Made by a program: the position numbers and the translations under genes
NCBI GenBank assembly: GCA_965262725.1
Contig: OZ253555.1
Coordinates: forward strand, 864,001-928,000
Source: Dehalococcoidia bacterium
Lineage (GTDB): Bacteria; Chloroflexota; Dehalococcoidia; UBA2979
Length of the DNA stretch: 64,000 nt
Reading direction: 5' to 3'
In this document: piece after piece, positions 1-62,312 of the stretch
Position numbering within the stretch: position 1 is the first letter of the stretch
How the letters are laid out: each line of letters begins with the position of its first letter
The notes under the pieces: generated by a model
Told to the model about the DNA's origin: nothing
Database searches by the model: none
What the model saw: the letters and a program-made list of their open reading frames with translations, nothing else

Positions 1-1220
1 AGCAGCTCCATGTCGTCGAGGGCGGCGGCCGCCGCGACGGTTCCCGTGTCCTCTTCCTCGATGCGCGCGGCTCGCGAGGCCTCGGCCACCGAGCACGCCG
101 CGTGGACGTCGACCGGGTAGAGATGGAAGGAGACGGTGTGCTGCTGGCATCTCAGCTCCTCCCACTCCGGCAGGAGCTCCGCGAGCCACGCCGCGGGAGG
201 AAGCGGATCGAGGGGCGGCGGCGAGTGGCCTTCGTCGCCGGCGTCTCCTCCCGCGTCGCCGAGCGCGGCGAGCGCGGCCGCGAGCTGCCCGGGGGCGTCG
301 CCGTGCACATCCCCCGCGTCGGCGGGAAGCGGGCGGTCGCCCCCGCCCCCCCTCTCGCCCCGGAGTGCGCCCAGCCAGCGCCTCAGCATGGGAGTCCGCC
401 CGGAAGTCACGCGGTCGAGGCGGCCGTCGGCGGCGGCATCGACCGTGCGCATCGCGCCGAGCAGGCGGACACACCACGCTGCGCTCTCCTCGCCGAGCCA
501 TCCGGCCACTGCCGGCGCGAGGTCGTGGTAGACCCGGTCGGTCGGGCGATCGCTCAGGGCGTGCAGCGCCGTGCGCGTCGCGAGCAGCGTCTCGCGAGCC
601 GCATCATCTCCGCGCGCGATCGCCTCCAGGGCGTCGAGCCACCGGGGCGCGTGCAGATCGCGCAGGCCGCCGCGGCCCGTCTTGAGCTGGGGCGAGGCGA
701 GCTGCCATCTCTCGGCCGTGACCCGCTCGCGCCGCCGTGCGGCGAGTTCGTCCGCAAGCCAGTGCCCCTGCCGCCTCGCGAGCGCGCGGTGCGCCTCCAG
801 GAAGCGGGCGAAGAGCGCGGCGTTGCCGGCGACGAGCCGCGCGTCGATCAGGGCCGTCGCCGTCTCGACGCTCTGCATCGCGGCGTCGAGCGCCTGGTCG
901 ACGTCGCGGACGGAGTGGCCGAGGCTGAGCTTCGCGTCCCAGAGCGGGTAGAGGAGGGCGGTCGCTGCCTCGTGGCTCTCCCTCTCCGCGAGCAGCATCA
1001 GGTCGACGTCCGAGTGCCGGCATAGCTCACGCCGCCCGTAGCCCCCGACGGCGATCACCGCGACGTCGGGACCGACCCGCGACGAGGCCAGCTCGGAAAG
1101 GGCTGCGTCGAGGAGCGCGGTGAGCTCGGCGCAGGCCTGGCTCCCCGCCTCGCTCGCCTGCCGCGGCGCCCGCTCCTCACGCGCCTTCAGGAAGCGCGTG
1201 AGCGCGACCGTGTCACTCAT
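1..1220 (-). CDS. glnD: PII uridylyl/nucleotidyltransferase GlnD, 5' part (runs off left edge; absent from ORF track)
   Basis: Hand translation from ATG at 1220: VIAVGGYGRRELCRHSDVDLMLL (NTase motif), LLYPLWDAKLSLGHSVR, QLKTGRGGLRDLH, LLPEWEELRCQQHTVSFHLYPVDVH (HD-domain lead-in); lies downstream of amtB-glnK. Confidence 0.92.
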   Translation of the reverse strand, partial: MSDTVALTRFLKAREERAPRQASEAGSQACAELTALLDAALSELASSRVGPDVAVIAVGGYGRRELCRHSDVDLMLLAERESHEAATALLYPLWDAKLSLGHSVRDVDQALDAAMQSVETATALIDARLVAGNAALFARFLEAHRALARRQGHWLADELAARRRERVTAERWQLASPQLKTGRGGLRDLHAPRWLDALEAIARGDDAARETLLATRTALHALSDRPTDRVYHDLAPAVAGWLGEESAAWCVRLLGAMRTVDAAADGRLDRVTSGRTPMLRRWLGALRGERGGGGDRPLPADAGDVHGDAPGQLAAALAALGDAGGDAGDEGHSPPPLDPLPPAAWLAELLPEWEELRCQQHTVSFHLYPVDVHAACSVAEASRAARIEEEDTGTVAAAAALDDMEL

Positions 1221-1327
1221 CGGCGCTCCGATCGAGCCGCGCGCTCGCTGACGCGGAGCGGCGCCGCTCGTCCCCGTGCGGGAACTCCGCGGCGCCGCCA
1301 CGTACGCCCGGTCGCCGTGCCGTGCAC
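1217..1327 (-). CDS. Putative 36-aa linker mini-ORF between glnK and glnD
   Basis: GGAGG (1336-1340) 8 nt before GTG 1327; open to TGA 1217-1219, which overlaps the glnD ATG (ATGA). Confidence 0.35.
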   Translation of the reverse strand: MHGTATGRTWRRRGVPARGRAAPLRVSERAARSERR

Positions 1328-1341
1328 GGCGCGACCCTCCG

Positions 1342-1680
1342 TCAGAGGGCGTCCTCGCCGCGCTCGCCCGTGCGGATGCGGATGACGTCCTCGACGGGGA
1401 GCACGGCGATCTTGCCGTCTCCAACCGAGCCGGTGCGCGCGGTCTGCTCGACCGTCGAGATCACGGTGGGCGCGAGCGTCTCGTCGACGAGTACCTCGAT
1501 CCGCACCTTCGGCACGAACTCGACATCGTACTCGGCGCCCCGGTAGATCTCCCGGTGTCCGCCCTGCCGCCCGAATCCCTGGATCGTCGCGATCGAGAGC
1601 CCCGTGACGCCCGCTTCCTTGAGCGCGTCACGCACCTCGTCCAGCTTGTAGGGGTTGATGTAGGCGATGATCATCTTCAC
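1342..1680 (-). CDS. glnK: PII nitrogen regulatory protein
   Basis: 112 aa; GFGRQGGHREIYRGAEY T-loop with Tyr51, TARTGSVGDGKI, IRIRTGE; adjacent to amtB. Confidence 0.96.
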   Translation of the reverse strand: MKMIIAYINPYKLDEVRDALKEAGVTGLSIATIQGFGRQGGHREIYRGAEYDVEFVPKVRIEVLVDETLAPTVISTVEQTARTGSVGDGKIAVLPVEDVIRIRTGERGEDAL

Positions 1681-1715
1681 TTGCGTGCCCCGTTTCCTCG
1701 TCCTCGCCGGCCCAC
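1677..1715 (-). CDS. Putative 12-aa linker mini-ORF (MGRRGRGNGARK) between amtB and glnK
   Basis: GGAG 6 nt before GTG 1715; TGA 1677-1679 overlaps the glnK GTG (GTGA). Confidence 0.33.
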   Translation of the reverse strand: MGRRGRGNGARK

Positions 1716-1737
1716 CTGTTGCTCCGTGCCGCGAACG

Positions 1738-2949: not shown

Positions 2950-3058
2950 GGCTTCTCCTTCCGGGCGTCTCTCCCCCCGGGTTCGGTCGCCGATGACCTC
3001 ACCCGGCTGGCCCGAGCAATGTCGGATCCGATGCCCGGCCCGAGCATGGCAGCGCGAT

Positions 3059-3118
3059 GTTTCCCGTGCTTTGCGCATGTGTTTCAAAGAGGTTGCATCG
3101 TGATTGCCATCGCGTTTC
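3059..3118 (-). promoter_or_regulatory. Phased array of six 5-mers, GlnR-box-like operator upstream of amtB
   Basis: Minus strand reads GAAAC-n6-GCAAT-n6-GCAAC-n6-GAAAC-n6-GCAAA-n6-GAAAC, exact 11-bp period (plus-strand starts 3059, 3070, 3081, 3092, 3103, 3114). Confidence 0.75.
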
Positions 3119-14777: not shown

Positions 14778-14806
14778 TTGACGCGCCCACAGGGGCGTGG
14801 TAGCAG
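14778..14806 (+). promoter_or_regulatory. Candidate promoter of the first CoA-transferase operon
   Basis: TTGACG, 17 nt, TGgTAGCAG; the -10 is weak; CGTTGACGCGC also precedes the paralog at 63490. Confidence 0.4.
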
Positions 14807-14833
14807 GGGCGCACCGTCGGCGGAGGGAGAGTC

Positions 14834-16021
14834 ATGCAGCCGCTTCACGGGATTCGCGTGATCGAAGTGGGTGCCAGCGTTGCGTCGGCCGCCGCGACGA
14901 AGACGTTCTCCGACTACGGTGCCGATGTCGTGACGGTGGAGCCCCCGACGGTCGGCTCACTCAGGCGCCTTCCGCCATTTCCGGAGGACCGACCACACGT
15001 CGACCACGGCGCTTACCACCTCGCGTTCAACACCGGTAAGCGGTCTCTCGCGCTCGATCTCGCCACGGCCTCGGGCCGCGAGGTGTTGACGCGGCTGCTC
15101 CACACCGCGCAGCTCGCCATCTTCGACGGGGCACCGCCCGAGATCCGGCGCCTGCGCGCGCTCGTCGATGCCGAGGAGGGGCCGAGCACGGTTGCGATCA
15201 CACCGCACGGACTCGACGGTCCCTACGCCGAGCGTCGCGAGAACGACCTCTCCGTGCTGTCGTGGACGACACGCGTCCACCGCAACGCCATCGAGGGCCG
15301 CGAGCCGCTCCGCTACGCGCCCGAGGCGGGGCACGTGCAGGCCGCCCACACCGCCGCCGCCGCCGGATTCGCGGTGTGCTGGGGGCTGCGCCACGGCGGC
15401 GTGAGGCGCGACGTCGACGTCTCCCAGGTCGAGGCGATCCTCGGCAACGTCGACACCTCGTTTGTCCCCTGGGCCTTCAGTGGCGCCGAGTGGGCGCGCA
15501 CCGGGGGGCAGTCCCACGTGGTCTACCCGACGGGCAACTACCGCTGCCGCGACGGCTATCTCACCATCTCGGCGCACATGGAGCCGTGGTTCAGCCGGCT
15601 ATGCTCAGCCATCGGCCACCCGGAGATGCGGGACGATCCGAGGTTCCGCCCCGAACAGCGCGGCGGCCACTGGGACGACTTCATGGAGTACTTCGGCCCC
15701 TACCTCGCCTCGCGCACGAGGCAGGAGGCGTTCGAGGAACTGCAGGACGCGGGCGTGATGGTCGCCCCGCTGCTCGACGTGTCGGAGGCTCTGACCGAGC
15801 CGCAGGCGGTCGCGCGCGGCTCGTTCGTTGAGGTGGAGCAACCCGGCGTCGGCACCCTCACGCTCGCGGGCGCGCCGTATCGCACGGGAGGGCTCGACTC
15901 CGCCGCGTGGAGTGCCCGCCCCTCCCCGCGCTTCGGGGAGCACACGGCCGAGCTGCTGGGTGAGCTCGGCTACGGAGCCGACGAGCAGATCGCGCTCTTC
16001 CGCGCCGGCGTGACGCGATGA
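14834..16021 (+). CDS. Family III (CaiB/BaiF) CoA-transferase, Asp-less alpha-type subunit A1
   Basis: PLHGIRVIE, DYGADVVTVEPP, NTGKRSLALDL, YRCRDG, PRFGEHT; APEAGHVQ at the usual Asp position. Confidence 0.92.
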   Translation: MQPLHGIRVIEVGASVASAAATKTFSDYGADVVTVEPPTVGSLRRLPPFPEDRPHVDHGAYHLAFNTGKRSLALDLATASGREVLTRLLHTAQLAIFDGAPPEIRRLRALVDAEEGPSTVAITPHGLDGPYAERRENDLSVLSWTTRVHRNAIEGREPLRYAPEAGHVQAAHTAAAAGFAVCWGLRHGGVRRDVDVSQVEAILGNVDTSFVPWAFSGAEWARTGGQSHVVYPTGNYRCRDGYLTISAHMEPWFSRLCSAIGHPEMRDDPRFRPEQRGGHWDDFMEYFGPYLASRTRQEAFEELQDAGVMVAPLLDVSEALTEPQAVARGSFVEVEQPGVGTLTLAGAPYRTGGLDSAAWSARPSPRFGEHTAELLGELGYGADEQIALFRAGVTR

Positions 16022-16116
16022 GCGCCGCCGCCGTCCGGCCGCGAGCGCGCCCGCCGCGCGCCGGCCGCCGCGGCCCGGAGTGGGGCCGGGGGCGCCTCAC
16101 GGGGGGGCCACGATGA
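16018..16116 (+). CDS. Putative 32-aa linker mini-ORF coupled to A1 and B1 at both ends
   Basis: ATG 16018 overlaps the A1 TGA; its TGA 16114-16116 overlaps the B1 ATG 16113. Confidence 0.45.
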   Translation: MSAAAVRPRARPPRAGRRGPEWGRGRLTGGPR

Positions 16117-17408
16117 CGACGCAGGCGCTGGCGGGGCTGCGCGTGGTCGAGATGACGGAGGCGTGGGCCGGCCCGGTCGGCGCCTCTCTGCTCGGCGACA
16201 TGGGCGCCGACGTGGTGAAGGTCGAGTCGTACCCCCGAAGCTCGATGACGCGCCCCGTGCGCCGGCGCGAGGGGACCATGCCGGGGGACGGTCCCCCCTA
16301 CGAGCGCGACGCGCTCCACCACCAGGGGAACCGCAACAAGCGCAACGTCTGTCTCGACGTCCGCACCCCGGGTGGCGCCGAGGTCCTGCGCCGACTGATC
16401 GCGGGCGCCGACCTCTTCATCGAGGGCTACTCCTCCGGCACCATCGCGAAGCTCGGCTTCGGATGGGAGGTCGTGCACACCCTGAACCCCCGCACCTGCA
16501 TGATCTCGCTCGCCGGCTGGGGGGTGGCGGGGCTTTACGCCGGGAAGGTGACGCTCGGCGCCGGGCTCGACGCCACCAGTGGGCACATGGCCGTGCGCGG
16601 CTACGCGGACGGGCCGATGGAGGATGTGCGTTCCAATTTCCATTCTGACGCGACCGGCGCCGCCACCACCGTCTGCGCCGCGATCACGGCGCTCGAGGAG
16701 CGCGATCGGACCGGCGAGGGGTGCTTCACCGATCTCTCGCAGTGGGAGGGGCTCGTCTGGCAGTTTCCGGGGCTTCTCGGAGAGTGGACGATGAACGGGC
16801 GCCTGCCGGCCCGCCTCGGCAACCGCGATCCGCATGTGGTGCCGCACGGCGTCTACCGCGCCGCCGGGGACGACGAGTGGGTCGCCGTCGCCGCCGAGGA
16901 CGACGCGCAGTGGGCGGCCATCGCGGGCGCGCTCGGGCGCGGCGAGTGGGCGCAGGAGGGCCACCCCTGGTCGACGCTAACGGGGCGCCTCCGCGAGCGC
17001 GGGGCCGTCGATGAGGCGATCACCGCCTGCACGCGTGAACGCGCCGCCTTCGAGATCGCCGACGCCGTGCAGGCCGCGGGCGCCATCGCCGCACCGGTCA
17101 CCTCCGCCTCGCAGGTGCTGATGTCGCCGCAGCTGCAGGCGCGCGAGTGGAACCACACCATCGAGCACCGCTGGACCGGCCCGGCGATGGTCGGCGGTTT
17201 CCTGTGGCAGGTCGAACCGGACCCGCTGAGCTGGGATCGGCCGACGGCGCTCGTCGGCGAGCACAACGAGGAGATCCTCACGGAGCTGGGCTACAGTGCC
17301 GACGAGATCGCCGACCTACTGTGCCAGGGGGCGATTGCCGATAGCTACCCCGCTCCCGGAGAGACACGGGAGTCTGTCGGGTTGCCGCCGCGGGCCGAGG
17401 CTACGTAG
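16113..17408 (+). CDS. Family III CoA-transferase, Asp-containing beta-type subunit B1
   Basis: WAGP, LGDMGADVVKVES, NRNKR, NFHSDATG (catalytic Asp), PHGVYR, GEHNEEIL. Confidence 0.93.
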   Translation: MTTQALAGLRVVEMTEAWAGPVGASLLGDMGADVVKVESYPRSSMTRPVRRREGTMPGDGPPYERDALHHQGNRNKRNVCLDVRTPGGAEVLRRLIAGADLFIEGYSSGTIAKLGFGWEVVHTLNPRTCMISLAGWGVAGLYAGKVTLGAGLDATSGHMAVRGYADGPMEDVRSNFHSDATGAATTVCAAITALEERDRTGEGCFTDLSQWEGLVWQFPGLLGEWTMNGRLPARLGNRDPHVVPHGVYRAAGDDEWVAVAAEDDAQWAAIAGALGRGEWAQEGHPWSTLTGRLRERGAVDEAITACTRERAAFEIADAVQAAGAIAAPVTSASQVLMSPQLQAREWNHTIEHRWTGPAMVGGFLWQVEPDPLSWDRPTALVGEHNEEILTELGYSADEIADLLCQGAIADSYPAPGETRESVGLPPRAEAT

Positions 17409-17459
17409 GGTGACATACGGTCCGGCGGGAATGCTGGCGGGGCGCGTGCGAGGTCGCCG

Positions 17460-18662
17460 ATGCAGCCACTCGTAGGCCTGCGGGTCGTGGAAGTCGGCGG
17501 GACGCTTGCGGCTGGCGCCGCCACCAAGCGGTATTCGGATTTCGGCGCGCGGGTCACCAAGGTCGAGCCGCCTACAGGCGGCGAGATCCGGCGCCTGGCA
17601 CCGTTCCCCGCAGACCGCCCGCACCTCGATACCGGCGCGATGCACATGGCGTTCGACACCGGGAAGCGCTCGCTTGCGCTCGATCTCGCGACGCCGTCGG
17701 GGCGAGAGGTGCTCAACCGGTTGCTCGCCGACGCCGACCTGCTGATAGCGCACCAGCCGGTGCCGGAGCTGCGCGACCTCCTCGATCGCATCGACCCGGA
17801 GGGAGGTCCCTGCACCGTCGTGATCACCGCCCACGGCATGGACGGGCCCTACGCGGAGCGGGCGGAGAACGATCTGACGCTCTTCGGGTGGTCGACGCGC
17901 GCGCATCGCCACTCCATCCAGGGGCGCGAGCCGCTGCGCTACGCGCCGCATGCGGGGATGATCCAGGTGGCGAACACTGCCGGGATGCTCGGCCTCGTCG
18001 CCATCTGGGGACGCCGGCAGGACGGACGGCGCCGCGACGTGGAGGTGGCTGGCGTCGAGGCGCTAATGGGCAACGTCGACAGCTCGTTCTTCCTCTGGGC
18101 CGTCAACGGCGCGGTCCAGCCGCGCTCGGGCGGGCAGTCCCGCAGGATCTATCCGATGGGCGCGTACCCCTGCAAGGACGGGCACGTGCTCTTCTCGGCG
18201 GCGCGGCATCCCTTCTTCACCAATCTCTGTCGGGTGATCGGACATCCCGAGGCGGCGTTCGACCCGCGCTTCACCGATCCGACGCAGCGCGCCGATCACT
18301 TCGACGAGTTCCACGGACTCCTGGTGCCGTGGCTCGCGACCCGTACGAAGTACGATATCTTCCATGAGATGCAGGCGGCGGGCGTGATGTGCGCGCCGGT
18401 GCTCGACGCCTCGGAGGTGATGACCGACCCGCAGTCTGAGGCGCGGAGGTCCTACGTGACGCTCGCGCAGCCGGGGCCGGGCGGCGAGCCGGTCGGGGTG
18501 ACGATTCCCGGTGCTCCGTACCGGATGAACGGCCTCCAGTCGGAGGCGTGGCAGGCGCGCCCGGCGCCGCGCCTCGGCGAGCACACTGGCGAGCTTCTCG
18601 ACGAGCTGGGCTACTCGAGGGACGAGCAGATCGCGCTCTTCCGGGCGGGGGTGACGGGATGA
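17460..18662 (+). CDS. Family III CoA-transferase, Asp-less subunit A2
   Basis: Close paralog of A1; APHAGMIQ at the Asp position; ends EQIALFRAGVTG. Confidence 0.92.
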   Translation: MQPLVGLRVVEVGGTLAAGAATKRYSDFGARVTKVEPPTGGEIRRLAPFPADRPHLDTGAMHMAFDTGKRSLALDLATPSGREVLNRLLADADLLIAHQPVPELRDLLDRIDPEGGPCTVVITAHGMDGPYAERAENDLTLFGWSTRAHRHSIQGREPLRYAPHAGMIQVANTAGMLGLVAIWGRRQDGRRRDVEVAGVEALMGNVDSSFFLWAVNGAVQPRSGGQSRRIYPMGAYPCKDGHVLFSAARHPFFTNLCRVIGHPEAAFDPRFTDPTQRADHFDEFHGLLVPWLATRTKYDIFHEMQAAGVMCAPVLDASEVMTDPQSEARRSYVTLAQPGPGGEPVGVTIPGAPYRMNGLQSEAWQARPAPRLGEHTGELLDELGYSRDEQIALFRAGVTG

Positions 18663-19912
18663 GCGGCGAGGCGCTCTCAGGCCTGCGCGTCGTGGAACTC
18701 TCCGAGGTCTGGGCGGGCCCCTTCGGCTGCTCGCTGCTCGGCGATCTCGGCGCCGACGTGATCAAGCTCGAGACCTACCCGCGCAACTCGGAGACGCGCC
18801 CCCTGCGCGAGCCGGATCCCCGCGTGGCGGACGGAGAGGGCCCCGTCTACGAGCGCGTCAACACGCACCACCACGGCAACCGCAACAAGCGCAACATCGC
18901 CGTCGACATCCGCACCGAGGAGGGCGCCGAGATCCTCCGGCGGTTGATCCGCTGGGGGGATGTCCTGGTCGAGAGCTTCTCCGCTGGGACCCTGGCCCGC
19001 ATGGGCTTCGGCTGGGACGCGGTGCACGCGCTCAACTCACGGATCACGCTGGTCTCCCTCGCCGGCTGGGGGCAGGAGGGGCCCTACGGTGGCTACCGCA
19101 TGTTCGGCGTCGGCTTCGACGCGATGACCGGCCACGCCTCCGTGCGCGGCTACCCCGACGGGACGATGTCGGACATGATCCCCATCCTCCACTCGGACGC
19201 GACCGTGCCGCTGGCGTGGATCTTCGGCGTGGTGGGCGCGCTGACGGAGCGCGAGCGGACCGGCGAGGGAAGCTACCTCGACCTCGCGCAGATCGAAGAG
19301 CTCTCCACGAACGTCCCGCATCTGATCGCGGAGTGGACGCTGAATCACCGCCTGCCGCGACGCCTGGGGGACAGCGACCCGCACGTTGTCCCCCATGGCT
19401 GCTACCGGGCGGCGGGCGACGACTCCTGGGTGAACATCGCCGCCGAGAACGATCGCCAGTGGGCCGCACTCGCGGCAGCCGCCGGCCATCCCGAGTGGGC
19501 GGAGGACGGGCACGTGTGGGCGTCGGCGGCGGGGCGCCTCCGTGAGCGCGACGCCGTGGACGCCGCCGTCTCGGAGTACGCCGCGAGCGCCGACGCGTGG
19601 GCTGTCGCGGATGTCCTGCAGGCCGCGGGCGTGATCGCGGCGCCGGTGCTCGCCCCGGGCGGTCCGCTGCTGTCGCCGCAGCTGCACGCCCGCGAGTGGT
19701 TCCAGGCGGTCGATCACCCGTACCTGCCGAACCGGCTGCTCGGCGGCTTCCTCTGGCGCATGCGGCCGGATGCCCCCTCGTGGGACCGTCGCGCGGCGCT
19801 CGTGGGCGAGCACAACGGGGAGGTCCTGCAGCAGCTCGGCTACGACGCGGTTGAGATCGAACGGCTGCGCTCAGCGGACGTCATCGGCGACCGTTATCCC
19901 GACCCCTCCTAG
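18659..19912 (+). CDS. Family III CoA-transferase, Asp-containing subunit B2
   Basis: ATGA overlap with A2; WAGP, NRNKR, ILHSDATVP. Confidence 0.93.
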   Translation: MSGEALSGLRVVELSEVWAGPFGCSLLGDLGADVIKLETYPRNSETRPLREPDPRVADGEGPVYERVNTHHHGNRNKRNIAVDIRTEEGAEILRRLIRWGDVLVESFSAGTLARMGFGWDAVHALNSRITLVSLAGWGQEGPYGGYRMFGVGFDAMTGHASVRGYPDGTMSDMIPILHSDATVPLAWIFGVVGALTERERTGEGSYLDLAQIEELSTNVPHLIAEWTLNHRLPRRLGDSDPHVVPHGCYRAAGDDSWVNIAAENDRQWAALAAAAGHPEWAEDGHVWASAAGRLRERDAVDAAVSEYAASADAWAVADVLQAAGVIAAPVLAPGGPLLSPQLHAREWFQAVDHPYLPNRLLGGFLWRMRPDAPSWDRRAALVGEHNGEVLQQLGYDAVEIERLRSADVIGDRYPDPS

Positions 19913-20011
19913 CGCCCTCACCCACCCGTCGCGGCGTGATCGTCACGACGGCGCGAGCTAAGCTCGACCCGCCGGGTGGGCGCGAGTCCCCCGCGCTGTC
20001 GGAGGGAGCGT

Positions 20012-21472
20012 ATGGCGACCGAGGATTCGCCGCAGGAGCGCGAACGGCCGTCGCCGGCGGGTGACCGGCCGGACGATGTCTCGGCGGAGGCGCTCGCCGA
20101 GAGGAACCTCTCCGACCCCCGGCAGGCGAGGCGCCACGCGCAGGTCCGCCGCTTCGTGCGCCCGGTGGAGCGCTTCATCCGGCTGGAGGTTGCCGGCGGC
20201 GTCGTCATCGTCGTCGCCGTGCTTCAGGCACTCGTCTGGGCGAACTCGCCCTGGTCCGAGAGCTACCACGAGCTCTTCGACATCCACTTCGCCGTGGACG
20301 TCTGGCTGTGGGCCTTCGACGAGTCCCTGAAGCACTGGATCGACGACGCGGCGATGGTCGTCTTCTTCTTCCTGGTCGGGCTCGAAATCAAGCGCGAGAT
20401 CGTCCTCGGCGAGCTCGCCTCGCCCCGGCGACTCGCGGTGCCGCTGGCCGCTGCGTTCGGCGGCATAGTGGTTCCGGTGTTGATCTTCCTTGTCTTCGTG
20501 GACGGCGAGGAGGCGAGGCGCGGGTGGGCGATCCCGATGGCCACCGACATCGCGATCGCGCTCGGCGTGCTGACGCTGCTCGGCTCCCGGATCCCGGCGG
20601 GCCTCAAGGTGCTGCTGCTCGGTGTCGCCGTCGTCGACGACATCGGCGGCGTGCTGGTGATCGCCGCCTTCTACACCGAGGGGCTCAACTACACGGCGCT
20701 CATGATCGTCGGCGCCGTGCTGGTCACGGTGGCACTCTTCAAGCGCTACGGCGTGCGGCCCGTCTACGTCTACGTCGCGCTCGGCGTTGTTGGGTGGGGG
20801 GCGACGTATGCCTCCGGCATCCACCCCACGATTTTCGGCGTGATCATGGGTCTGATGACGCCGTCGCGTCCTCTCTACGACCCCGCCGCGTTCGGGGCGG
20901 TGGCCGAGCGGCTGATCGCGCAGTTCTGGCGCGCCCACGAGATCCCCGACAGGCACTTCCGCCGGGAGCACGAGGCGGATGCCCTGCACTCGCTGTCGAC
21001 GAGTGCGACTGAGACGGTCGCGCCGCTCGACCGGCTGGAGCGCAGCCTGCTGCCGTGGTCGGCTTTCCTCGTGGTTCCGCTGTTCGCCTTCGCCAACGCC
21101 GGCGTCGACCTCCGCGACGGGGCGCTCGAGGCCGCTCTCGGCTCGTCGCTCGCGCTCGGCGTGGGGATGGGCCTGGTGGTGGGGAAGCCGCTCGGCGTGA
21201 CGCTCGGCGCGTGGATCGCGGTCCGGTTCGGCGCGTCGCTTCCGAGCGGCGTGACGTGGACGCAGCTGGCGGCGATGGGGGTGATCGCTGGCATCGGGTT
21301 CACGGTGGCGCTCTTCATCACCGAGCTCTCCTACCCGGCCGAGGTGCTCGGCGTCGAGGCGGCGGATGAGCTGCTCCGCGAGGCGAAGGTCGGCATCCTG
21401 ATCGGCTCGGTTGTGGCGGCCCTGGCCGGCCTGCTCACGCTCGCGGTCGCGTCGAGGTCCGAGCGCGGATGA
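20012..21472 (+). CDS. nhaA: Na+/H+ antiporter NhaA
   Basis: FFFLVGLEIKRE, GWAIPMATDIA, AVVDDIGG, PLFAFANAGV, GKPLG, GIGFTVALFI. Confidence 0.96.
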   Translation: MATEDSPQERERPSPAGDRPDDVSAEALAERNLSDPRQARRHAQVRRFVRPVERFIRLEVAGGVVIVVAVLQALVWANSPWSESYHELFDIHFAVDVWLWAFDESLKHWIDDAAMVVFFFLVGLEIKREIVLGELASPRRLAVPLAAAFGGIVVPVLIFLVFVDGEEARRGWAIPMATDIAIALGVLTLLGSRIPAGLKVLLLGVAVVDDIGGVLVIAAFYTEGLNYTALMIVGAVLVTVALFKRYGVRPVYVYVALGVVGWGATYASGIHPTIFGVIMGLMTPSRPLYDPAAFGAVAERLIAQFWRAHEIPDRHFRREHEADALHSLSTSATETVAPLDRLERSLLPWSAFLVVPLFAFANAGVDLRDGALEAALGSSLALGVGMGLVVGKPLGVTLGAWIAVRFGASLPSGVTWTQLAAMGVIAGIGFTVALFITELSYPAEVLGVEAADELLREAKVGILIGSVVAALAGLLTLAVASRSERG

Positions 21473-21531
21473 TGCGGCCTCAGGCGGCCGGGAGCGGCGC
21501 CCCCTCGCGGGGCCACGCCGGCCCGCGTTGA
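21469..21531 (+). CDS. Putative 20-aa linker mini-ORF (MMRPQAAGSGAPSRGHAGPR)
   Basis: ATG 21469 overlaps the nhaA TGA; its TGA 21529-21531 overlaps the antiporter ATG 21531 (TGATG). Confidence 0.4.
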   Translation: MMRPQAAGSGAPSRGHAGPR

Positions 21532-22502
21532 TGGGCTCGGGTCTCGCGGACCTCGCCCTGACGGCGGCGGGGCTCGGGGCGGTGCTTCTCGGGGCGTGGC
21601 TGCTCGTGAAGGGGGCGGCGCGCCTGGCCGTTGCCTTCGGGCTGTCGCCGCTGATCGTCGGGGCCACGGTGGTCGCCTTCGGTACCTCGGCTCCGGAGTT
21701 CGTGGTGAGCCTCGTCGCGGGTCTCGACGGATCCGGCGGACTCGCCGTCGGCAACGTGCTCGGCTCCAACGTCACGAACGTCGCGCTGGTGCTCGGCCTC
21801 GCCGGCGTCGCCCGCCCCATGGCCGTGCATCCACGGCTCCTCAGGTGGGAGATGCCGGTGCTGGCCGCGGCAACCGCGGCGGTCGTGCTCGTTGGCGTGG
21901 GCGGAACAATCGGGCACGCCGCCGGGGCCGCGCTGTTCGCGGCCCTGCTGGCCTTCGTCGTGCTCTCGCTCCGGCTGCGCCCGGAGGTGGCCGCCGTGCA
22001 GGTCGGCGGGGAGCTGCCCGAGGCGCGTGAGGAGCTCACGACGCGAGAGGTCGCCCGCGAGGTGGCGCTCGTCGTCGTCGGTATCGGAGCTCTCGCCGTC
22101 GGCTCCCAGATGGCCGTTCACGGGGCGGTCGCCAGCGCCGCGCGCATCGGCATCAGCGAGGTCGCGATCGGCGTCACGGTCGTGGCCATCGGTACGAGCC
22201 TCCCCGAGATCGTGACGAGCGCTGTCGCCGCACTCCGTGGCGAGCAGGAGATCGCCGTCGCCAACGTCGTGGGCTCGAACGTCTTCAACCTGCTGGGCGT
22301 GCTCGGTCTGACCGGGGCGCTGGCCACACTCCCGACGGCGTCCGAGCTCTACCGCTTCGAGATGCCGGCGCTCGTCGCATCGACGGCGGTTCTCTTTCTG
22401 CTGGCCTGGCCCCGGGGTCGTATCGGGCGGCCGGAGGGGGTCGCTCTCATCGTCGCCTACGCTGCTTTTCTCGCGATCGTGCTCGCGCGGGGCGGAGCGT
22501 AG
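21531..22502 (+). CDS. Ca2+/Na+ (CaCA, YrbG-like) antiporter
   Basis: Two alpha-repeats: GTSAPE...GNVLGSNVTN and GTSLPE...ANVVGSNVFN. Confidence 0.94.
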   Translation: MGSGLADLALTAAGLGAVLLGAWLLVKGAARLAVAFGLSPLIVGATVVAFGTSAPEFVVSLVAGLDGSGGLAVGNVLGSNVTNVALVLGLAGVARPMAVHPRLLRWEMPVLAAATAAVVLVGVGGTIGHAAGAALFAALLAFVVLSLRLRPEVAAVQVGGELPEAREELTTREVAREVALVVVGIGALAVGSQMAVHGAVASAARIGISEVAIGVTVVAIGTSLPEIVTSAVAALRGEQEIAVANVVGSNVFNLLGVLGLTGALATLPTASELYRFEMPALVASTAVLFLLAWPRGRIGRPEGVALIVAYAAFLAIVLARGGA

Positions 22503-22521
22503 GCCGCCGTCCGCGGGGCGC

Positions 22522-22947
22522 TCACGCCCCGGGCGCTCCCTCGGATCCGCCAGCTGCCTCCGCAGGCGAGGCGGCCCGTGCGCGCTGCCAGATCGAGAAC
22601 AGCGTGCGCCCGCCGACGTAGAGCACGACGACCCCAAAGATGCGAGAGAGCGTCTCGGAGTCGAGTTCGCCGGCGATCCGCGCGCCGACCACGGCGAGTA
22701 CGATCGCGGCCGGCGTGACGGTGGCCGCAAGCCGGCCGTCCACGTAGCCGCGCCTGAGGTTCGCCGTGGTCGCCGAGATCGCCGTCGGAATGACCGCGGC
22801 GAGGGAGATGCCCTGCGCGAGCTGCTGCTCGACGCCCAAGAATAGCACCAGTGCCGGTACGTAGAGCGTTCCGCCCCCGATGCCGAGTAGCCCGCCGGCG
22901 ACGCCGCCGGCCAGGCCGATCGCGAGCGCGCCGAGAATCTCCTCCAC
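22522..22947 (-). CDS. Half-size TauE/SafE (TSUP) exporter protein
   Basis: GGLLGIGGGTLYVPAL...AQGISL; about 4 TM. Confidence 0.88.
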   Translation of the reverse strand: MEEILGALAIGLAGGVAGGLLGIGGGTLYVPALVLFLGVEQQLAQGISLAAVIPTAISATTANLRRGYVDGRLAATVTPAAIVLAVVGARIAGELDSETLSRIFGVVVLYVGGRTLFSIWQRARAASPAEAAGGSEGAPGA

Positions 22948-34318: not shown

Positions 34319-35008
34319 CTAGCCGGTTCCCCGGGAGCGGCCGTCCTCTGAGAGCCGCAGCACGCGCTCGAGCCAGAGCGAGAGATCGCGGGCGCTCTCG
34401 TTGTTGATCTGGTGCCCCATCAGGTACTCGTGGAACTCTGGCTCCACGCCGAGGGCGCGCAGGCTCTCACAGGCGTCGCGCGCCTTCTCGATCGAAATGA
34501 GCTCGTCGTGGCTCCCGTGCTGCACCAGCACGGGGAGGCGTGGCACGTCGGCGTGCGGCGTGATCGCGTCGAGCACGTCCGGCGCGAGCCACGTCGAGAG
34601 CGTGGCGAGGCCGGCGAAGCGCCCGGGATCGGCGAGCGCCAGCGCGTAGGCGAGCGATCCGCCCTGCGAGAAGCCGAGAAGCGCGACGCGCTCCGTGTCG
34701 ATGGGGTAGCGCTCCTCCGCCTCGTCGAGGAAACGGACCAGCAGTTCGCTGACCCGCTCGAGCTCGCCGGGCGCGCGTTGCTGGTCGGAGCCGCGCTGAA
34801 ACCAGGTGTACCCCGGATACCCAGGCTCGACCGCGAACTCGGCCTGCGGGCAGATCATCAGCACCCGACCGTGAGCGAGGATCGGGCCGAGGCCGAGAAG
34901 GTCCTGCGCGTGGGCGCCGTGCCCGTGGAGGGCGATCAGCGTGGGTAGCGAGCGATCCGTCGCCGGGTCGGGGACGGCGGGGTGTGCGATCGCGTGGAGC
35001 AGGGTCAT
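34319..35008 (-). CDS. Phospholipase/carboxylesterase
   Basis: ALHGHG, GFSQGG, QHGSHD, MGHQI; TATACT 7 nt before ATG 35008. Confidence 0.92.
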   Translation of the reverse strand: MTLLHAIAHPAVPDPATDRSLPTLIALHGHGAHAQDLLGLGPILAHGRVLMICPQAEFAVEPGYPGYTWFQRGSDQQRAPGELERVSELLVRFLDEAEERYPIDTERVALLGFSQGGSLAYALALADPGRFAGLATLSTWLAPDVLDAITPHADVPRLPVLVQHGSHDELISIEKARDACESLRALGVEPEFHEYLMGHQINNESARDLSLWLERVLRLSEDGRSRGTG

Positions 35009-37149: not shown

Positions 37150-37196
37150 GGCGCACGACCGCCCGGTCCTCGTCTCGGGTGAGGGGAGGACTGCAT
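37146..37196 (-). CDS. Putative leaderless 16-aa upstream ORF (MQSSPHPRRGPGGRAP) coupled to CLC
   Basis: TACGGT (37204-37209) + 7 nt + ATG 37196; TGA overlaps the CLC GTG (GTGA). Confidence 0.45.
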   Translation of the reverse strand: MQSSPHPRRGPGGRAP

Positions 37197-37793: not shown

Positions 37794-37830
37794 GGAGAGC
37801 CGCCGTGGAGAAGTCGATGGGCAGGAGGGC

Positions 37831-38286
37831 GTGACCGCCCCGCTCTACTTCGAGGACGTCGTCGTGGGCGACGAGCTCCCGGTGTGGTCGTGCGTGACGG
37901 GCCTTCTGAACTGGAACCGCTTCGCCGCCGTCAACGACGAGTTCTACGAGGTCCACATGGACGACGACGCCGCGCGCGCGGCGGAGAACCCCCAGGGGGC
38001 GTTCGGAATGGGGATGCTGCGCTTCTCCTACCTCCACAACCTGCTGCGCTCCTGGGCGGGCGAGGACGTCGACGTCCGCGAGCTCGGGTGCCGCTACCGT
38101 GCCGTCAACCAGAAGGGGGACGTCCTGCGCGTGACCGGACGCGTCATCGGCACGCGCATCGAGGACGGCGCCCATCTCGTCGATCTCGCGCTCGACGTGC
38201 TCAACCAGGACGGTGAGTCGACGACGCCCGCCCACGCGGTGGTCGCCCTTCCTTCCCGCCTCCGGGGAGTGGGTCTCCAGGCGTAG
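37831..38286 (+). CDS. MaoC-like dehydratase subunit
   Basis: YFEDVVVGDELP, FAAVNDEFYEVHMDD, NQDGE. Confidence 0.87.
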   Translation: MTAPLYFEDVVVGDELPVWSCVTGLLNWNRFAAVNDEFYEVHMDDDAARAAENPQGAFGMGMLRFSYLHNLLRSWAGEDVDVRELGCRYRAVNQKGDVLRVTGRVIGTRIEDGAHLVDLALDVLNQDGESTTPAHAVVALPSRLRGVGLQA

Positions 38287-49294: not shown

Positions 49295-49549
49295 GGCGCC
49301 GTACGACGCTCTCGAACCGCCAAGGCGCGTTCGCGACGCTGGAGGCCTGCGTCGATTCAACCGGTACGTCCCAGCGAGGTGAGCCAGCCGGGCCGCCGAA
49401 CAGCTCTGAGCGTTCCTGAGAGTACTGCTCACGCCGCACGGGGAGGTTGTGGGATTCCTCGATGAGATCGAACGTGGCACCGTCGTCCCGTCGTAGCGCA
49501 GGACTATGATCGGCGCTCGGGTCCGGGTCGCGGGAAGGGGGCGCGCCAG

Positions 49550-51007
49550 ATGACACAGGAGACCGCGGTGCGGGACGACGCCGGTTGGAGGGCGCGCGGG
49601 AAGCCGAGCGAGGGCCTGACAAGCGAGGCCGTCGAATTCGCCACCGGCCTCACCTTCGAGGGGATCACGCCCGAGGCGCTGCGTATCGCGCGCCGCTGCG
49701 TTCTCGACGGGCTCGGCGTCGCGCTCGCCGGCTCGGAGCAGCCCGCGATCGACCTGCTGGCCCGCTACGTGGAGAAGATCGGGGGCGCACAGCAGGCCCG
49801 CGTGGTGGGCGACGCCTCTGTGCGCCTTCCCGCCCACTTCGCGGCGTTGTGGAACGGGACGGCCGGGCACGCGATGGACTGGGACGACACGCAGCTTTCG
49901 GAGGGGGAGGGGCGGCTCTACGGGCTGCTCACGCACCCCACGATCCCGCCCCTCGCCGCCTCGCTCGCCGTGGCCGAGCTCTTGGGCGGCGCCGGCGGCC
50001 GCCGCTTCCTCACCGCCTTCGTCGCCGGCTTCGAGGTGGAGTGCAAGCTCAACGAGGCGGTAACCCCGGATCACTACATCGGCGGCTTCCACTCGAGCGG
50101 CACGTTCGGGACCTTCGGCGCGGCGACCGCGGCCGCCAAGCTCCTGGGGCTCGATGCGACTGGGACCGCACGCGCGCTCGGGATCGCCGCCTCGATGGCG
50201 TCCGGGATCCGCGTGAACTTCGGAACGATGACGAAGCCGCTACACGTCGGCCGCGCCGCCGAGAACGGCGTGACGGCGGCGCTCCTCGCGAGCGAGGGCT
50301 TCACCGCGCACGAGGAGGGCATCGACGGGCCGTGGGGCTACCTCGCCGTCGCCGGCCGCGGTGCCGAGCCGGAGCTCGTGCGCGGCCGCTTCGGCGCGCC
50401 CCTCTCCATCGAGAGCCCTGGCGTCTCCATCAAGCCCTATCCCTGCGGCGTGCTGACGCACCCGTCGATGGATGCGCTCCTAGCGCTGATGAGGGAGGAG
50501 GGCCTCTCCTCCGGCGACATCGACCGCATCACCCTTCACGCCGGCAACAACATCCTCGGGCCGATCCGCTACCGGGTCGCGACGACCGAGCTCGAGGGGA
50601 AGTTCTCGATGGCGTTCCTGCTGTCGGCGATAGCCATCGCCGGGCGCGCGGGGAAGAGCGAGTTCACCGACGACTTCGTCCGCAGGCCCGACGTCCAGGA
50701 GATGCAGCGCCGCGTCGAGACGGCGTACGACGCCGAGATCGAGGCCCGCGGTCTCGACAAGATCCGCTCTAGGCTCGTCCTCGAGACGCGGGACGGCCGT
50801 CGCTTCGAGCGCGAGGCCGGGGAGGCTTACCGCGGCGGCCCCGACAATCCCCTGACCGATCGGCAAGTCGAGGAGAAGTTCGAGGATTGCGCCGGCGGCC
50901 TCCTCGACGATGCGCGCGCGCGCGAGGTGGAGCGCCGCGTCTGGGCGCTCGAGGAGCAGTCCGACGTGACGGAGCTGCTTCCGCTCCTCTCCTGGCGCGA
51001 CCGCTGA
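49550..51007 (+). CDS. MmgE/PrpD family protein
   Basis: NGTAGHAMDWDD, THP, GFH, KPLHVG, IKPYPCG, KFS, GGPDNPL. Confidence 0.93.
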   Translation: MTQETAVRDDAGWRARGKPSEGLTSEAVEFATGLTFEGITPEALRIARRCVLDGLGVALAGSEQPAIDLLARYVEKIGGAQQARVVGDASVRLPAHFAALWNGTAGHAMDWDDTQLSEGEGRLYGLLTHPTIPPLAASLAVAELLGGAGGRRFLTAFVAGFEVECKLNEAVTPDHYIGGFHSSGTFGTFGAATAAAKLLGLDATGTARALGIAASMASGIRVNFGTMTKPLHVGRAAENGVTAALLASEGFTAHEEGIDGPWGYLAVAGRGAEPELVRGRFGAPLSIESPGVSIKPYPCGVLTHPSMDALLALMREEGLSSGDIDRITLHAGNNILGPIRYRVATTELEGKFSMAFLLSAIAIAGRAGKSEFTDDFVRRPDVQEMQRRVETAYDAEIEARGLDKIRSRLVLETRDGRRFEREAGEAYRGGPDNPLTDRQVEEKFEDCAGGLLDDARAREVERRVWALEEQSDVTELLPLLSWRDR

Positions 51008-58106: not shown

Positions 58107-58137
58107 GGGCGCAGGCGCAGCGGGGGCGCCCGCGGCG

Positions 58138-58608: not shown

Positions 58609-58658
58609 CGACCCGGCGGCGCGGCTTGCCGGGGGCACCGACGGATGAGGGGGGACGG

Positions 58659-59705
58659 ATGAACCGGCACGGGATCTCGCTCGCCTATTCGGAGCTCGAG
58701 GAGAAGCCGGCGCTCGCGCGCCGTGCGGAGGAGGCGGGCTTCGACATCGTCTGGAATTCCGGTGAGAGCATCCCGCTCTTCGGGACGATCGCGGGCGTGA
58801 CTACCCGGGCCCGCTTCGGCTCGGGCGTGATCCGCGTCTTCGCGCACGAGGCGAGGGAGCTGGCGCAGGCGGCCATCGACCTGCAGCGGCTCTCCGGCAA
58901 CCGCTTCGTGATGGGGCTCGGGGGCGGCACGAAGAGAATGAACATCAACCAGCTCGGAAAGGAATTCGACCGCCCCGCGACGCGCATCCGCGAGCTCATC
59001 CGGGCGCTGCGCCTCGCATGGTCGACGCCGGTCGACGAGGCGCTCGAATTCGAGGGCACCTACTACCAGCTCTCCGGACGCGGGCTGCTCGGGGGCGGCG
59101 ACGTTCCCGCCGGGATGGGCCTCGGCGGCGGGTCGGCGCCTCCCGCGCCTCTCGAGACGCCCATCTACCTGGCCGCCGTGAACCGGGCGATGCTGAGGCT
59201 CGCCGGTGAGCGGTGCCAGGGACTCTGCGGCCATCCGATCGCCTCGGTGCGGTTCATGCAGGAGGTGGCGTGGCCCGGCATCGACGAGGGTCTGGCGCGC
59301 TCAGGCCGCACGCGCGAGGACTTCGACCACAATGCGTGGATCGTGACGGCGATCTCCGGCGACCGGGAGCAGGCGAAGCGCGAGGCGAAGTACCACATCG
59401 GCCGCTTCATGGCGACGCGGAGCTACGGGATCGTGCTCGACTCGCAGGGCTACTCCGACGTGCGCGGCCGCATCCAGGAGGCCTTCTTTGGTCGGCAGGG
59501 GGATCCAGGGGCGCTCATCGACGCCGTGCCGGACGAGGTCGCGCGCGACCACGCGATCTTCGGGACGCCCGACGAGGTGCGCGAGCAGTCCGAGCGCTAC
59601 GAGGGCGTGGTGGGGACGTCGACCTTCTACTGCGCCTCGGCGCTGATGTCGCGGGAACGGATCCGCGAGAACATCGGGCTGATGATCGAGACCTTCGGGC
59701 GCTGA
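58659..59705 (+). CDS. LLM-class flavin-dependent oxidoreductase
   Basis: AEEAGFDIVW, LQRLSGNRFVMGLG, PIYLAAV, LAGE, IFGTPDEV. Confidence 0.88.
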   Translation: MNRHGISLAYSELEEKPALARRAEEAGFDIVWNSGESIPLFGTIAGVTTRARFGSGVIRVFAHEARELAQAAIDLQRLSGNRFVMGLGGGTKRMNINQLGKEFDRPATRIRELIRALRLAWSTPVDEALEFEGTYYQLSGRGLLGGGDVPAGMGLGGGSAPPAPLETPIYLAAVNRAMLRLAGERCQGLCGHPIASVRFMQEVAWPGIDEGLARSGRTREDFDHNAWIVTAISGDREQAKREAKYHIGRFMATRSYGIVLDSQGYSDVRGRIQEAFFGRQGDPGALIDAVPDEVARDHAIFGTPDEVREQSERYEGVVGTSTFYCASALMSRERIRENIGLMIETFGR

Positions 59706-59712
59706 CGGGACG

Positions 59713-60981: not shown

Positions 60982-61005
60982 GCGCCTCCCGACCGTGCCC
61001 CGGGG

Positions 61006-62274
61006 CTACGCGCCGAGGAGCGCCTCCGTCTCGGCGTCGTAGCGATCGCCGATGGCGCACGCTTCCTCCAGCGCGCGAATCTCGTCTGAGTCGTAGCCGA
61101 GATCGGTGAGCACCTCGCGGTTGTGCTCGCCGATCAGCCCGCTGCCGCGCTCGTACTCCGGGGAATCGGGCTCCATCTGCCACAGGAAGCCCGGAAAGAG
61201 TCGCATGCCGAAGTAGGGCTGGTCCACGGGCTTGAACCAGCCGCGGTGCTGCAGCTGTGGCGAAGGAAGCATGGCGGAGGGGGCCGCGACCGGCGCGGCG
61301 ATGACGCCGGCGGTCTGGAGCTCGTCCGCGGCGTCGGCGTGCGGGCGCTTCCGCGTGAAGGCCGCGACCTCGCGATCGATCTCCTCGCGCGCCGCGAGCC
61401 GCCCCGGGACGCTCGCCCAGGGATGGCCGTCCTCGGCCCACTCCGGGTGGCCAAGCACGCCGGCGAGCCCGGCCCACTGCGCGTCGGTCTCGGCGGCGAC
61501 CGTCACCCACTGCTCGGGTCCGGCTGAGGGGTAGCAGCCGTGTGGCACGACGTAGGGATCGCGGTTCCCGAGCGGCCCCGGTACGCGTCCGGCAAGCTCC
61601 GACTCGCCCAGGGAGCCTGCGAGCGCCCAGGCGAACCCCTCGGCCTGCGAGAGGTCGATGAATGAGCCCTCGCCGGTTCTCTCGCGCCGGCTGAGCGCGG
61701 TGAGCGCGGCGAAGACGACCTCGATGGGGGAGGTCGCGTCGGTGTGGAACCCCCCCGGCACGTCCTCCACGTCCCTCCCCGGCACGCCGCGGAGGGAGAC
61801 GTGTCCGACGTGAGCGTCGATGCTGGAGCCAAGGGCGACGTAGCCGCGGTAGGGGCCGCGCACGCCCCAGGCCGGCATCGAGATCATCGAGATGCGGGGG
61901 TTCAGGGTGTGTACGCTCTCCCAGCCGAAGCCTGCCCGGTCGATGGTCCCCGCCGCGAAGCCCTCGATGACGATGTCCCCCCATGCAAGCAGCCGGCGGA
62001 GCACCTCGGCGCCCCCTTCGGAGCGGAAGTCGATCGCGATGTGGCGCTTGTTTCGGTTCCCCTGGATCTGCGAGTCGACGCGCTCGTAGACCGGGCCGGG
62101 GCCGTCGGCGACCCGGGCGTCGGGCACGAGGGGACGCGTCAACGAGCGGCGGGGGAACGACTCCACCTTGATGACATCGGCACCCATGTCGCCGAGGAGG
62201 CAGGCGCCGAAGGGCCCGGCCCAGACTTCGGCGAGGTCGATCACGCGGATGCCGGCGAGCGCCGTGCTCGTCAT
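61006..62274 (-). CDS. Family III CoA-transferase, Asp-containing subunit B3
   Basis: WAGP, NRNKR, GFHTDATSP. Confidence 0.93.
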   Translation of the reverse strand: MTSTALAGIRVIDLAEVWAGPFGACLLGDMGADVIKVESFPRRSLTRPLVPDARVADGPGPVYERVDSQIQGNRNKRHIAIDFRSEGGAEVLRRLLAWGDIVIEGFAAGTIDRAGFGWESVHTLNPRISMISMPAWGVRGPYRGYVALGSSIDAHVGHVSLRGVPGRDVEDVPGGFHTDATSPIEVVFAALTALSRRERTGEGSFIDLSQAEGFAWALAGSLGESELAGRVPGPLGNRDPYVVPHGCYPSAGPEQWVTVAAETDAQWAGLAGVLGHPEWAEDGHPWASVPGRLAAREEIDREVAAFTRKRPHADAADELQTAGVIAAPVAAPSAMLPSPQLQHRGWFKPVDQPYFGMRLFPGFLWQMEPDSPEYERGSGLIGEHNREVLTDLGYDSDEIRALEEACAIGDRYDAETEALLGA

Positions 62275-62312
62275 CGCCCGACCCCGTGCGCCGCCTGGTC
62301 GAGGATGCTCAT
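62271..62312 (-). CDS. Putative 13-aa linker mini-ORF (MSILDQAAHGVGR) coupled at both ends
   Basis: ATG 62312 overlaps the A3 TGA; its TGA 62271-62273 overlaps the B3 ATG 62274. Confidence 0.45.
   Translation of the reverse strand: MSILDQAAHGVGR

Follow-up and report, generated by a model that had tools for sequence, protein, structure and literature searches.

Mycobacterial interspersed repetitive units (MIRUs) are described as elements of 40–100 bp that lie in operon gaps, are transcribed with the operon, and carry tetranucleotide direct repeats on either flank; they are proposed to enter at start codons, leaving the open reading frame (ORF) of the unit coupled at −4 nt and expression little affected (PMC3184786; PMC12548453). 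In Mycobacterium tuberculosis, upstream ORFs (uORFs) such as uPPE2 that are coupled by an NUGA/URRUG overlap are reported to act as a "landing pad" or "relay" by termination-reinitiation; they can overlap further uORFs, and the coupling may counter Rho termination (bioRxiv 10.1101/2022.06.01.494293; PMC11260477). By analogy, these two systems appear to be the closest precedents for the elements described here, which are short linker ORFs that span gaps between operon genes, beginning over the stop codon of the upstream gene and ending over the start codon of the downstream gene. Three of the linkers lie in a 64-kb stretch of a Dehalococcoidia genome (positions 864,001–928,000 of contig OZ253555.1), referred to as the window; the query genome is labelled G000.

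The linkers resemble a MIRU in being intergenic units inside an operon whose ORF overlaps both flanking genes, an arrangement present in the three double-ended linkers of the window (16018–16116, 21469–21531, and 62271–62312). However, MIRUs in the accounts cited are a dispersed and tandem family of ∼40–50 copies, whereas the linkers form no repeat family, the three in the window are unique in the genome, and their sources are local junction duplications and tail frameshifts. With uORFs of the uPPE2 type they share a short, poorly conserved ORF whose stop overlaps the next start. As described, those uORFs lie in 5′ leaders and recruit ribosomes through a Shine-Dalgarno (SD) sequence or as leaderless messages, whereas the linkers lie between operon genes and would be fed by termination on the upstream gene.

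Two further arrangements are comparable. Canonical stop-start overlaps of the −4 and −1 types have the same junction motifs that are found at each end of a linker, and sister genomes carry a plain overlap where the query genome has a linker; unlike a canonical overlap, a linker comprises two successive junctions separated by a disposable ORF. Reinitiation is reported to fail across untranslated gaps of ∼20–38 nt, and overlaps are reported to be enriched among subunits of heteromers (PMC10666635). Synthetic bicistronic designs and "nonsense" leader ORFs likewise use a short non-functional ORF directly upstream to deliver ribosomes (PMC12548453; PMC13255528), and a short ORF is stated in review literature to exist, in some cases, perhaps solely for ribosome delivery (PMC12548453). 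Unlike the linkers, these designs are engineered, contain a strong internal ribosome-binding site, and receive no ribosomes from a gene upstream. In the literature searched, which included few subscription journals and no supplements, no paper was found to describe linker ORFs within operons that are conserved in frame only, and the text of PMC9094748 contains no words beginning "coupl" or "reinitiat".

Frame of double-ended junctions

The double-ended class is a genome-wide feature that exceeds chance. Genes of the query genome (3.67 Mb, one contig, 72% GC) were called with a purpose-written program based on iterated codon log-odds and greedy ORF selection, in which the start is chosen from the coding score together with learned weights for start type and SD motif. 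The program called 3,239 genes and is weakest at start positions, some of which are demonstrably miscalled (for example, at 49550). A whole genome of the same genus, G003, was called with the same program, and G001, G002, and G004 are further congeners. The frame test covers same-strand junctions with a gap of 10–150 nt in which the upstream stop lies in ATGA, GTGA, or TTGA and the downstream start in NTGA. One-third of such junctions are expected in the linking frame, in which the start that overlaps the upstream stop and the stop that overlaps the downstream start are in phase.

First frame counts were inflated because a 15-copy junction and other repeats were counted repeatedly, and removal of duplicates reduced the same-strand pairs with 10–150-nt gaps from 977 to 922 (55 dropped). 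The multi-copy junction, TGA + 16 nt + ATGA with identical flanks, occurs 15 times genome-wide (for example, near G000:C1 247102) and is probably part of an insertion sequence (IS) element with two ORFs. The linking frame accounts for 34 of 58 junctions in G000 before de-duplication and for 34 of 56 afterwards (p = 4e-5). With 1-nt overlap types included at either end, the linking, middle, and same-frame classes hold 48, 21, and 9 of 78 junctions (binomial test against 1/3, p = 4e-7). In G003, 49 of 63 junctions are in the linking frame and the three classes with 1-nt overlaps hold 70, 9, and 9 of 88 (p = 7.5e-19). Junctions competent at neither end are distributed evenly over the frames (158, 151, and 179 in G000; 174, 166, and 161 in G003). 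The middle class is unreliable, consisting mostly of true 4-nt overlaps for which the caller set the start too far downstream; when only the linking and same-frame classes are compared, the counts are 48 versus 9 in G000 (p = 1.5e-7) and 70 versus 9 in G003 (p = 8e-13).

A preliminary description of the window had proposed the in-frame fraction as a check on its relay ORFs. The double-ended junctions exceed 1/3 (48/78 and 70/88), whereas the single-ended mini-ORFs, which end on the next start without beginning over the previous stop, occur at chance frequency. Genome-wide there are 48 stop-start overlap chains in the linking frame, with each overlap measuring 4 nt (NTGA) or 1 nt (TGATG type); 42 of the chains are open, and 16018–16116, 21469–21531, and 62271–62312 are the members in the window. 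The class thus amounts to only 48 of 922 gapped junctions, compared with 309 plain overlaps of the −4 type (a further 56 are of the −1 type), and the broader proposal that this genome keeps operon translation continuous by means of relay ORFs is not borne out.

Conservation of start, frame, and stop

The start, frame, and stop of the double-ended class are conserved between two species, and the sequence drifts as any spacer does. G000 and G003 share 2,033 reciprocal best hits with a median amino-acid identity of 85.7% and 1,210 conserved same-strand adjacencies. Junctions were compared where the independently called downstream starts align and a gap is present in both genomes, with class membership ascertained in G000. 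Frame is kept at 22 of 23 double-ended in-frame junctions (15 of the same length, 7 changed by a multiple of three (3n), and 1 by a non-3n length), compared with 112 of 217 other gaps of 10–64 nt (80 of the same length, 32 changed by 3n, and 105 by non-3n; Fisher p = 2.5e-5). When only gaps that changed length are considered, the change is 3n in 7 of 8 class members versus 32 of 137 others (p = 4e-4). This is the check by 3n gap length in relatives that the preliminary description had suggested, and it gives a positive outcome for the double-ended class only. In a published comparison, 34% of changes in operon spacing that distinguish E. coli from Salmonella were 3n (PMC1480536), and the 3n share of the control gaps here, 23–31%, is in line with that value. 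The seven members with a 1-nt overlap, which did not enter the first test, all keep frame, and in three of these the length differs, by 3, 12, and 30 nt.

The junction codons are retained as well. Of the 23 class members, 22 retain the start that overlaps the upstream stop, compared with 28 of 48 among other junctions with such a start (p = 9e-4), or 18 of 29 when the unreliable frame class is removed from the control (p = 0.007). All 23 retain the stop that overlaps the downstream start, versus 108 of 131 (p = 0.026). With ascertainment reversed, so that an NTGA-type class is defined in G003, frame is kept in 15 of 21 members versus 201 of 427 others (p = 0.04). A stricter positional filter leaves 11 class members, 10 of which keep frame (p = 0.017), a sample too small to use. 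Where a linking-frame junction has NTGA downstream but no start overlaps its upstream stop, frame is preserved in only 26 of 54 cases, and this separates the origin of the linking frame from its maintenance.

Retention of the frame is not accompanied by retention of the sequence. Between G000 and G003, same-length linkers are 0.71 identical, compared with 0.70 for other same-length gaps. Mismatches in the linkers are flat by codon position (0.29/0.29/0.34), whereas in the first 30 codons of the downstream genes they are 0.13/0.12/0.25; GC by codon position is likewise flat in gaps (0.765/0.745/0.784) compared with genes (0.72/0.51/0.90). Arginine, glycine, proline, and alanine make up 62% of linker residues, which is typical of out-of-frame GC-rich DNA. 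No purifying selection on the amino-acid sequence of the linkers was seen, either as a codon-position bias of mismatches or as similarity of the orthologous peptides.

Linkers of the window and their origin

The preliminary description listed nine mini-ORFs in the window, all of which are present at the coordinates that it gave, each interval being a multiple of three and running from a start to a stop codon. Five are on the plus strand (16018–16116, 21469–21531, 37805–37834, 49506–49553, and 58645–58662) and four on the minus strand (62271–62312, 1677–1715, 1217–1327, and 37146–37196), a location that it had left unstated. Its assignment of coupling at both ends to 16018–16116, 21469–21531, and 62271–62312 is exact, as the stop/start overlaps can be read at each junction.

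The first linker (16018–16116, 32 codons) has ATGA over the stop of the upstream gene (14834–16021, plus strand) and ATGA over the start of the downstream gene (16113–17408, plus strand). Both genes match Pfam CoA_transf_3, the CoA-transferase family III, and the downstream start is confirmed by the N-termini of orthologues. The second (21469–21531, 20 codons) lies between an NhaA-type antiporter gene (Na_H_antiport_1, 20012–21472, plus strand) and a Na_Ca_ex gene (21531–22502, plus strand), with ATGA overlapping the stop of the former and TGATG the start of the latter (ATG at 21531). The third (62271–62312, 13 codons, minus strand) has ATGA at each end and separates a second, paralogous CoA-transferase III pair, with the upstream gene at 62309–63490 and the downstream gene at 61006–62274 (both CoA_transf_3, minus strand).

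The corresponding loci in congeners indicate how such linkers may form. At the first junction, the upstream C-terminus in G001, G002, and G003 (...AGVTR/AGVIR) runs straight into a 4-nt ATGA/GTGA overlap, whereas the ATGA motifs are 95 nt apart in G000 and 107 nt apart in G004; the difference is 12 nt, and the linking frame is open in both versions. In G004, a stretch of ∼25 nt from the junction occurs twice; the linker peptide starts with the MT of the downstream gene, and its last residues duplicate the upstream AGVTR. This is a junction duplication, and the suggestion that linkers are scars of start duplications fits this locus. The second junction keeps the same 58-nt gap and both overlaps in G003 with a diverged interior; in G001 both overlaps are kept around a 15-codon linker, and G004 has a 43-codon ORF that begins at a GTG overlapping the upstream stop and ends with TAG, 1 nt ahead of a GTG start. 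At the third junction G003 keeps the 34-nt gap in the form GTGA...ATGA with diverged sequence; for the other congeners alignment lengths alone show that 1001 nt align with 1001 nt in G001 and G002 and that G004 has 42 additional nt. Contigs of four public runs from two studies, one of the runs possibly being the source of the assembly, are identical to the query over 14800–16915 and 18878–22600, and the first two linker junctions are therefore not assembly errors.

Seven junctions could be aligned at which one genome has a plain 4-nt overlap and the other a gap, and six of the gapped forms are in the linking frame with NTGA at both ends. In four of these six transitions the linker shows homology to the C-terminal tail that the upstream protein has in the other genome; the upstream gene was shifted to the +1 frame by a 1-nt indel, and its tail was orphaned. 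The orphaned tail lies in the linking frame whatever the base N, because the +1 frame of coding sequence rich in GC at third positions can stop only at NTG|A; the opposite frameshift would fuse the two genes. In two transitions the junction itself is duplicated, including a 16-nt case. These alignments show that linkers arise by the splitting of an ancestral 4-nt ATGA/GTGA overlap, either by duplication of or insertion at the junction or by frameshift of the upstream tail. Duplication is visible only in single cases: across G000, the 24 nt ahead of the two junctions of a linker are no more alike than random pairs.

A mobile repeat family of the MIRU type was considered and rejected on an all-versus-all blastn of 794 gaps, in which similarity to another gap was found for 7 of 43 class members, and the window linkers match only themselves, apart from short GC-rich matches. 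Predicted RNA structure in the three window linkers is no more stable than in shuffled sequences (Z-scores 1.65, 0.48, and −0.56). No promoters or terminators are predicted in the gaps of 14800–22600, which contain the two plus-strand linkers, the predicted sites being only inside genes.

CoA-transferase III gene pairs are highly multiplied in these genomes, a 1.2-kb probe over one pair giving 22 matches in G000 and ∼20 in each congener. A third pair in the window (17460–18662/18659–19912) has a plain 4-nt overlap. That the pairs are mostly overlapped by 4 nt suggests that they encode heteromeric enzymes, which fits the reported enrichment of overlaps among heteromer subunits.

Interpretation

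Ribosomes terminating on the upstream stop may reinitiate on the overlapping start. Variants that read out of frame into the next gene, or that fuse to it, would then be removed, and variants that stop exactly on the next start would survive, either because the ribosome is handed on (a relay) or because it is kept from blocking that start (an insulator). Ribosomes that reinitiate on a linker would have to reach the next start or be halted there, and selection would therefore act on start, frame, and stop and not on the peptide. A termination-reinitiation relay or insulator of this kind is plausible, and on the comparative evidence we give frame-level selection on the double-ended linkers through such reinitiation roughly an even chance. 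More tentative, and in our estimate somewhat short of even, is the general proposal that high-GC actinobacterial operons hold dozens of sequence-free relay ORFs defined by start, frame, and stop only, born by junction splitting and kept by purifying selection on reinitiation, and that this is probably general to GC-rich bacteria.

Several observations weigh against selection through reinitiation. In G000, upstream stops in CTGA, which provide no canonical start, are as enriched in the linking frame (34 versus 7) as start-capable ones (40 versus 7; Fisher p = 1); the excess is start-specific in G003 (57:32 versus 9:19, p = 0.004), and only there. Stops in the linker frame are only slightly depleted relative to shuffled sequences (42 open versus 37.2±2.1 in G000 and 64 versus 58.4±2.6 in G003). 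SD sequences precede linker starts at the background rate (21% versus 21% in G000 and 29% versus 20% in G003), whereas 62–63% of true −4 overlap starts have one. Downstream genes often have their own SD, at 48% versus 65% of other junctions in G000 (p = 0.02) and at 64% versus 69% in G003 (not significant), and may not need a relay. The features of a leader uORF, which are an initiation signal of its own and a downstream gene without SD, are not those observed, as the linkers are intergenic, their SD frequency is that of the background, and 48% and 64% of the downstream genes carry an SD. The conservation sample is small, with 23 junctions of which 8 changed length, and G000 and G003 are congeners and not independent, sharing 26 of the 38 G000 members with conserved adjacency. 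Finally, genes and starts come from our own caller, which miscalls some starts.

The strongest alternative is that the linkers are pure by-products of how junctions break. A frameshift of the upstream tail at an ATGA/GTGA junction puts the leftover in the linking frame, and the alternative outcomes vanish from the record, having become gene fusions or been annotated as extensions of the N-terminus; young age, small numbers, or low local indel rates would then account for the apparent conservation. In the four orphaned-tail cases the frame is indeed given by construction, and the frame excess alone is no proof of function because tail frameshifts can create the linking frame in this way without reinitiation. 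The enrichment of the CTGA control in G000 and the lack of SD above background at the linker start also favor a by-product, as does a linker-frame codon score that is slightly more coding-like (−0.22 and −0.27 versus ∼−0.35 to −0.5 in other gaps), as expected of formerly coding DNA. However, at an identity of ∼0.71 unconstrained spacers keep frame in 112 of 217 cases, whereas 22 of 23 class members do so, with a 3n change in 7 of the 8 that differ in length. Without the upstream start, linking-frame junctions hold their frame in just 26 of 54 cases, and the overlapping start codon is retained more often than in controls (22/23 versus 28/48). A pure by-product appears less likely than selection through reinitiation.

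A second alternative is an annotation artefact, in which the gaps are in reality coding, as N- or C-terminal extensions or through assembly frameshifts, so that 3n changes reflect protein constraint and the mini-ORF is a shadow frame. Errors of this kind do occur: most junctions that have a start over the upstream stop and a downstream gene in that frame are true −4 overlaps that were miscalled, a clear frameshift separates one upstream gene of G000 from its orthologue in G003, and the linker frame outscores the called frame before the stop in 3 of 34 junctions in G000 and 3 of 51 in G003, suggesting broken genes. In the remaining 31 of 34 and 48 of 51, however, the called upstream frame scores positive up to its stop and the linker frame negative. 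Gap GC is flat over codon positions, unlike that of genes, and substitutions show no preference among the three positions; the called starts coincide with the N-termini of orthologues under the start-agreement filter, and the contigs of four runs from two studies reproduce two window junctions exactly. Assembly frameshifts or relic coding sequence as the bulk cause were ruled out on the flat gap GC and the called-frame scores, and this explanation holds for a minority of members; as a general account an artefact is improbable.

Functional micro-proteins encoded by the linkers are very improbable: the ORFs stay open between species with start and stop retained, but orthologous peptides differ freely, no synonymous bias is present, the content of arginine, glycine, proline, and alanine (62%) is that of out-of-frame GC-rich DNA, and orthologous lengths vary (15, 20, and 43 codons at the 21469–21531 junction).

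If selection through reinitiation is correct, the linkers would provide comparative-genomic evidence that termination-reinitiation in vivo is strong enough to shape non-coding spacers, and would explain how operons tolerate split overlap junctions. They would also add a class of translated ORFs with irrelevant peptides that annotation and conservation screens miss. The resulting rule for annotation of GC-rich genomes and for operon engineering would be a simple one, namely a start over the stop, a spacer of 3n, and a stop over the start.

Single-ended mini-ORFs

The other six mini-ORFs of the window, which are single-ended or weak, are by-products of DNA with 72% GC. Stops occur in gaps at ∼1–1.5 per 100 codons in any frame. 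About 80% of gaps contain none in a given frame, the share among 10–150-nt gaps being 70–86% for most frames and categories (53% in one category). The base that follows the start codon is A in 24–30% of genes that do not overlap their neighbor. With stops rare at this GC content, and with a quarter to a third of genes starting with NTGA, the default is an ORF in another frame that runs up to the next start and ends on it. Accordingly, single-ended mini-ORFs number 104 in G000 versus 95.6±7.1 after the gap interiors are shuffled, and 110 in G003 versus 94.3±6.5. In GC-rich DNA most mini-ORFs that end on the next start should be taken as noise, the signal being confined to the double-ended ones.

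The window does not stand out from the genome. Of its 25 same-strand gaps of 10–150 nt, 13 have a stop that overlaps the start, 7 contain a mini-ORF, and 3 are double-ended, whereas the genome-wide rates among 977 gaps (332, 162, and 47, respectively) predict 4.1 mini-ORFs and 1.3 double-ended ones (Poisson P(≥3 double) = 0.14). The window-wide relay pattern that was originally proposed is therefore not supported, as the window counts are not above chance and six of the nine mini-ORFs occur at chance frequency and are unconserved in G003. When these six were sought in G003, none was kept (0/6), the gap change being non-3n, the TGA over the start being absent, or the start being different.

Individually, each of the six is judged to be a chance occurrence. 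The mini-ORF at 1217–1327 (minus strand), in the glnK-glnD gap, starts at a GTG with an SD and has its stop over the ATGA of glnD; in G003 the gap is 128 versus 121 nt, a non-3n change, and the frame that ends on ATGA, read by eye, has no ATG, GTG, or TTG. The one in the amtB-glnK gap (1677–1715, minus strand) relies on an unsupported start of the downstream gene at GTG 1680. The Pfam P-II profile aligns from residue 1 of the form that starts at ATG 1674, and G003 lacks GTGA at that position; ATG 1674 is more likely than GTG 1680 as the start of the P-II gene. Both gaps belong to an amtB/P-II/glnD-like operon in the region 1–2949 on the minus strand. A 9-codon mini-ORF (37805–37834, plus strand) precedes a MaoC-like gene and is single-ended; G003 has a gap of 17 versus 37 nt and no TGA over the called start. 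The SD-like purine runs that the preliminary description had placed ahead of 1715, 1327, and 37805 are visible in the sequence context.

The mini-ORF at 37146–37196 (minus strand), upstream of a CLC channel gene in a divergent region, relies on an uncertain GTG at 37149, and the start in G003 is ATGC with no overlap. The single-ended mini-ORF at 49506–49553 (plus strand) precedes a PrpD/MmgE-like gene whose start at ATG 49550 is supported; in G003 this start is ATGG, again with no overlap. For that gene (49550–51007) the caller chose GTG 49568, and the N-terminus of the G003 orthologue supports ATG 49550. The shortest mini-ORF, with 5 codons (58645–58662, plus strand), lies ahead of a luciferase-like monooxygenase gene; the gap in G003 is 40 versus 50 nt, and the ATG, read by eye, is out of frame with the TGA that overlaps the start.

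One additional single-ended mini-ORF, absent from the preliminary description, is located on the minus strand at 35008, where it ends on an ATGA start in a 113-nt gap. The same junction in G003 has a 49-nt gap of the double-ended type (GTGA...ATGA).

Other observations

Other neighbors of the mini-ORFs identified by Pfam are an FAS1_DH/MaoC pair, a RibD_C gene followed by the PrpD/MmgE gene, and a GNAT gene followed by the luciferase-like monooxygenase gene. Outside the window, the upstream gene near G000:C1 2902037 is out of frame over at least its last ∼20 codons relative to the G003 orthologue, and its conserved C-terminus lies in the "linker" frame, as a result of either a real frameshift or an assembly indel.

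Among same-strand gaps of 10–150 nt in G000 that have both genes in one reading frame, TAG exceeds TGA (201 versus 94), whereas the two stops are at ∼1:1 in the other two frame classes; this TAG surplus is not seen in G003. Over all G000 genes the stop codons are TGA (1,624), TAG (1,469), and TAA (146), a usage that is unusual at 72% GC, and G003 has a similar distribution (1,277/1,245/107).

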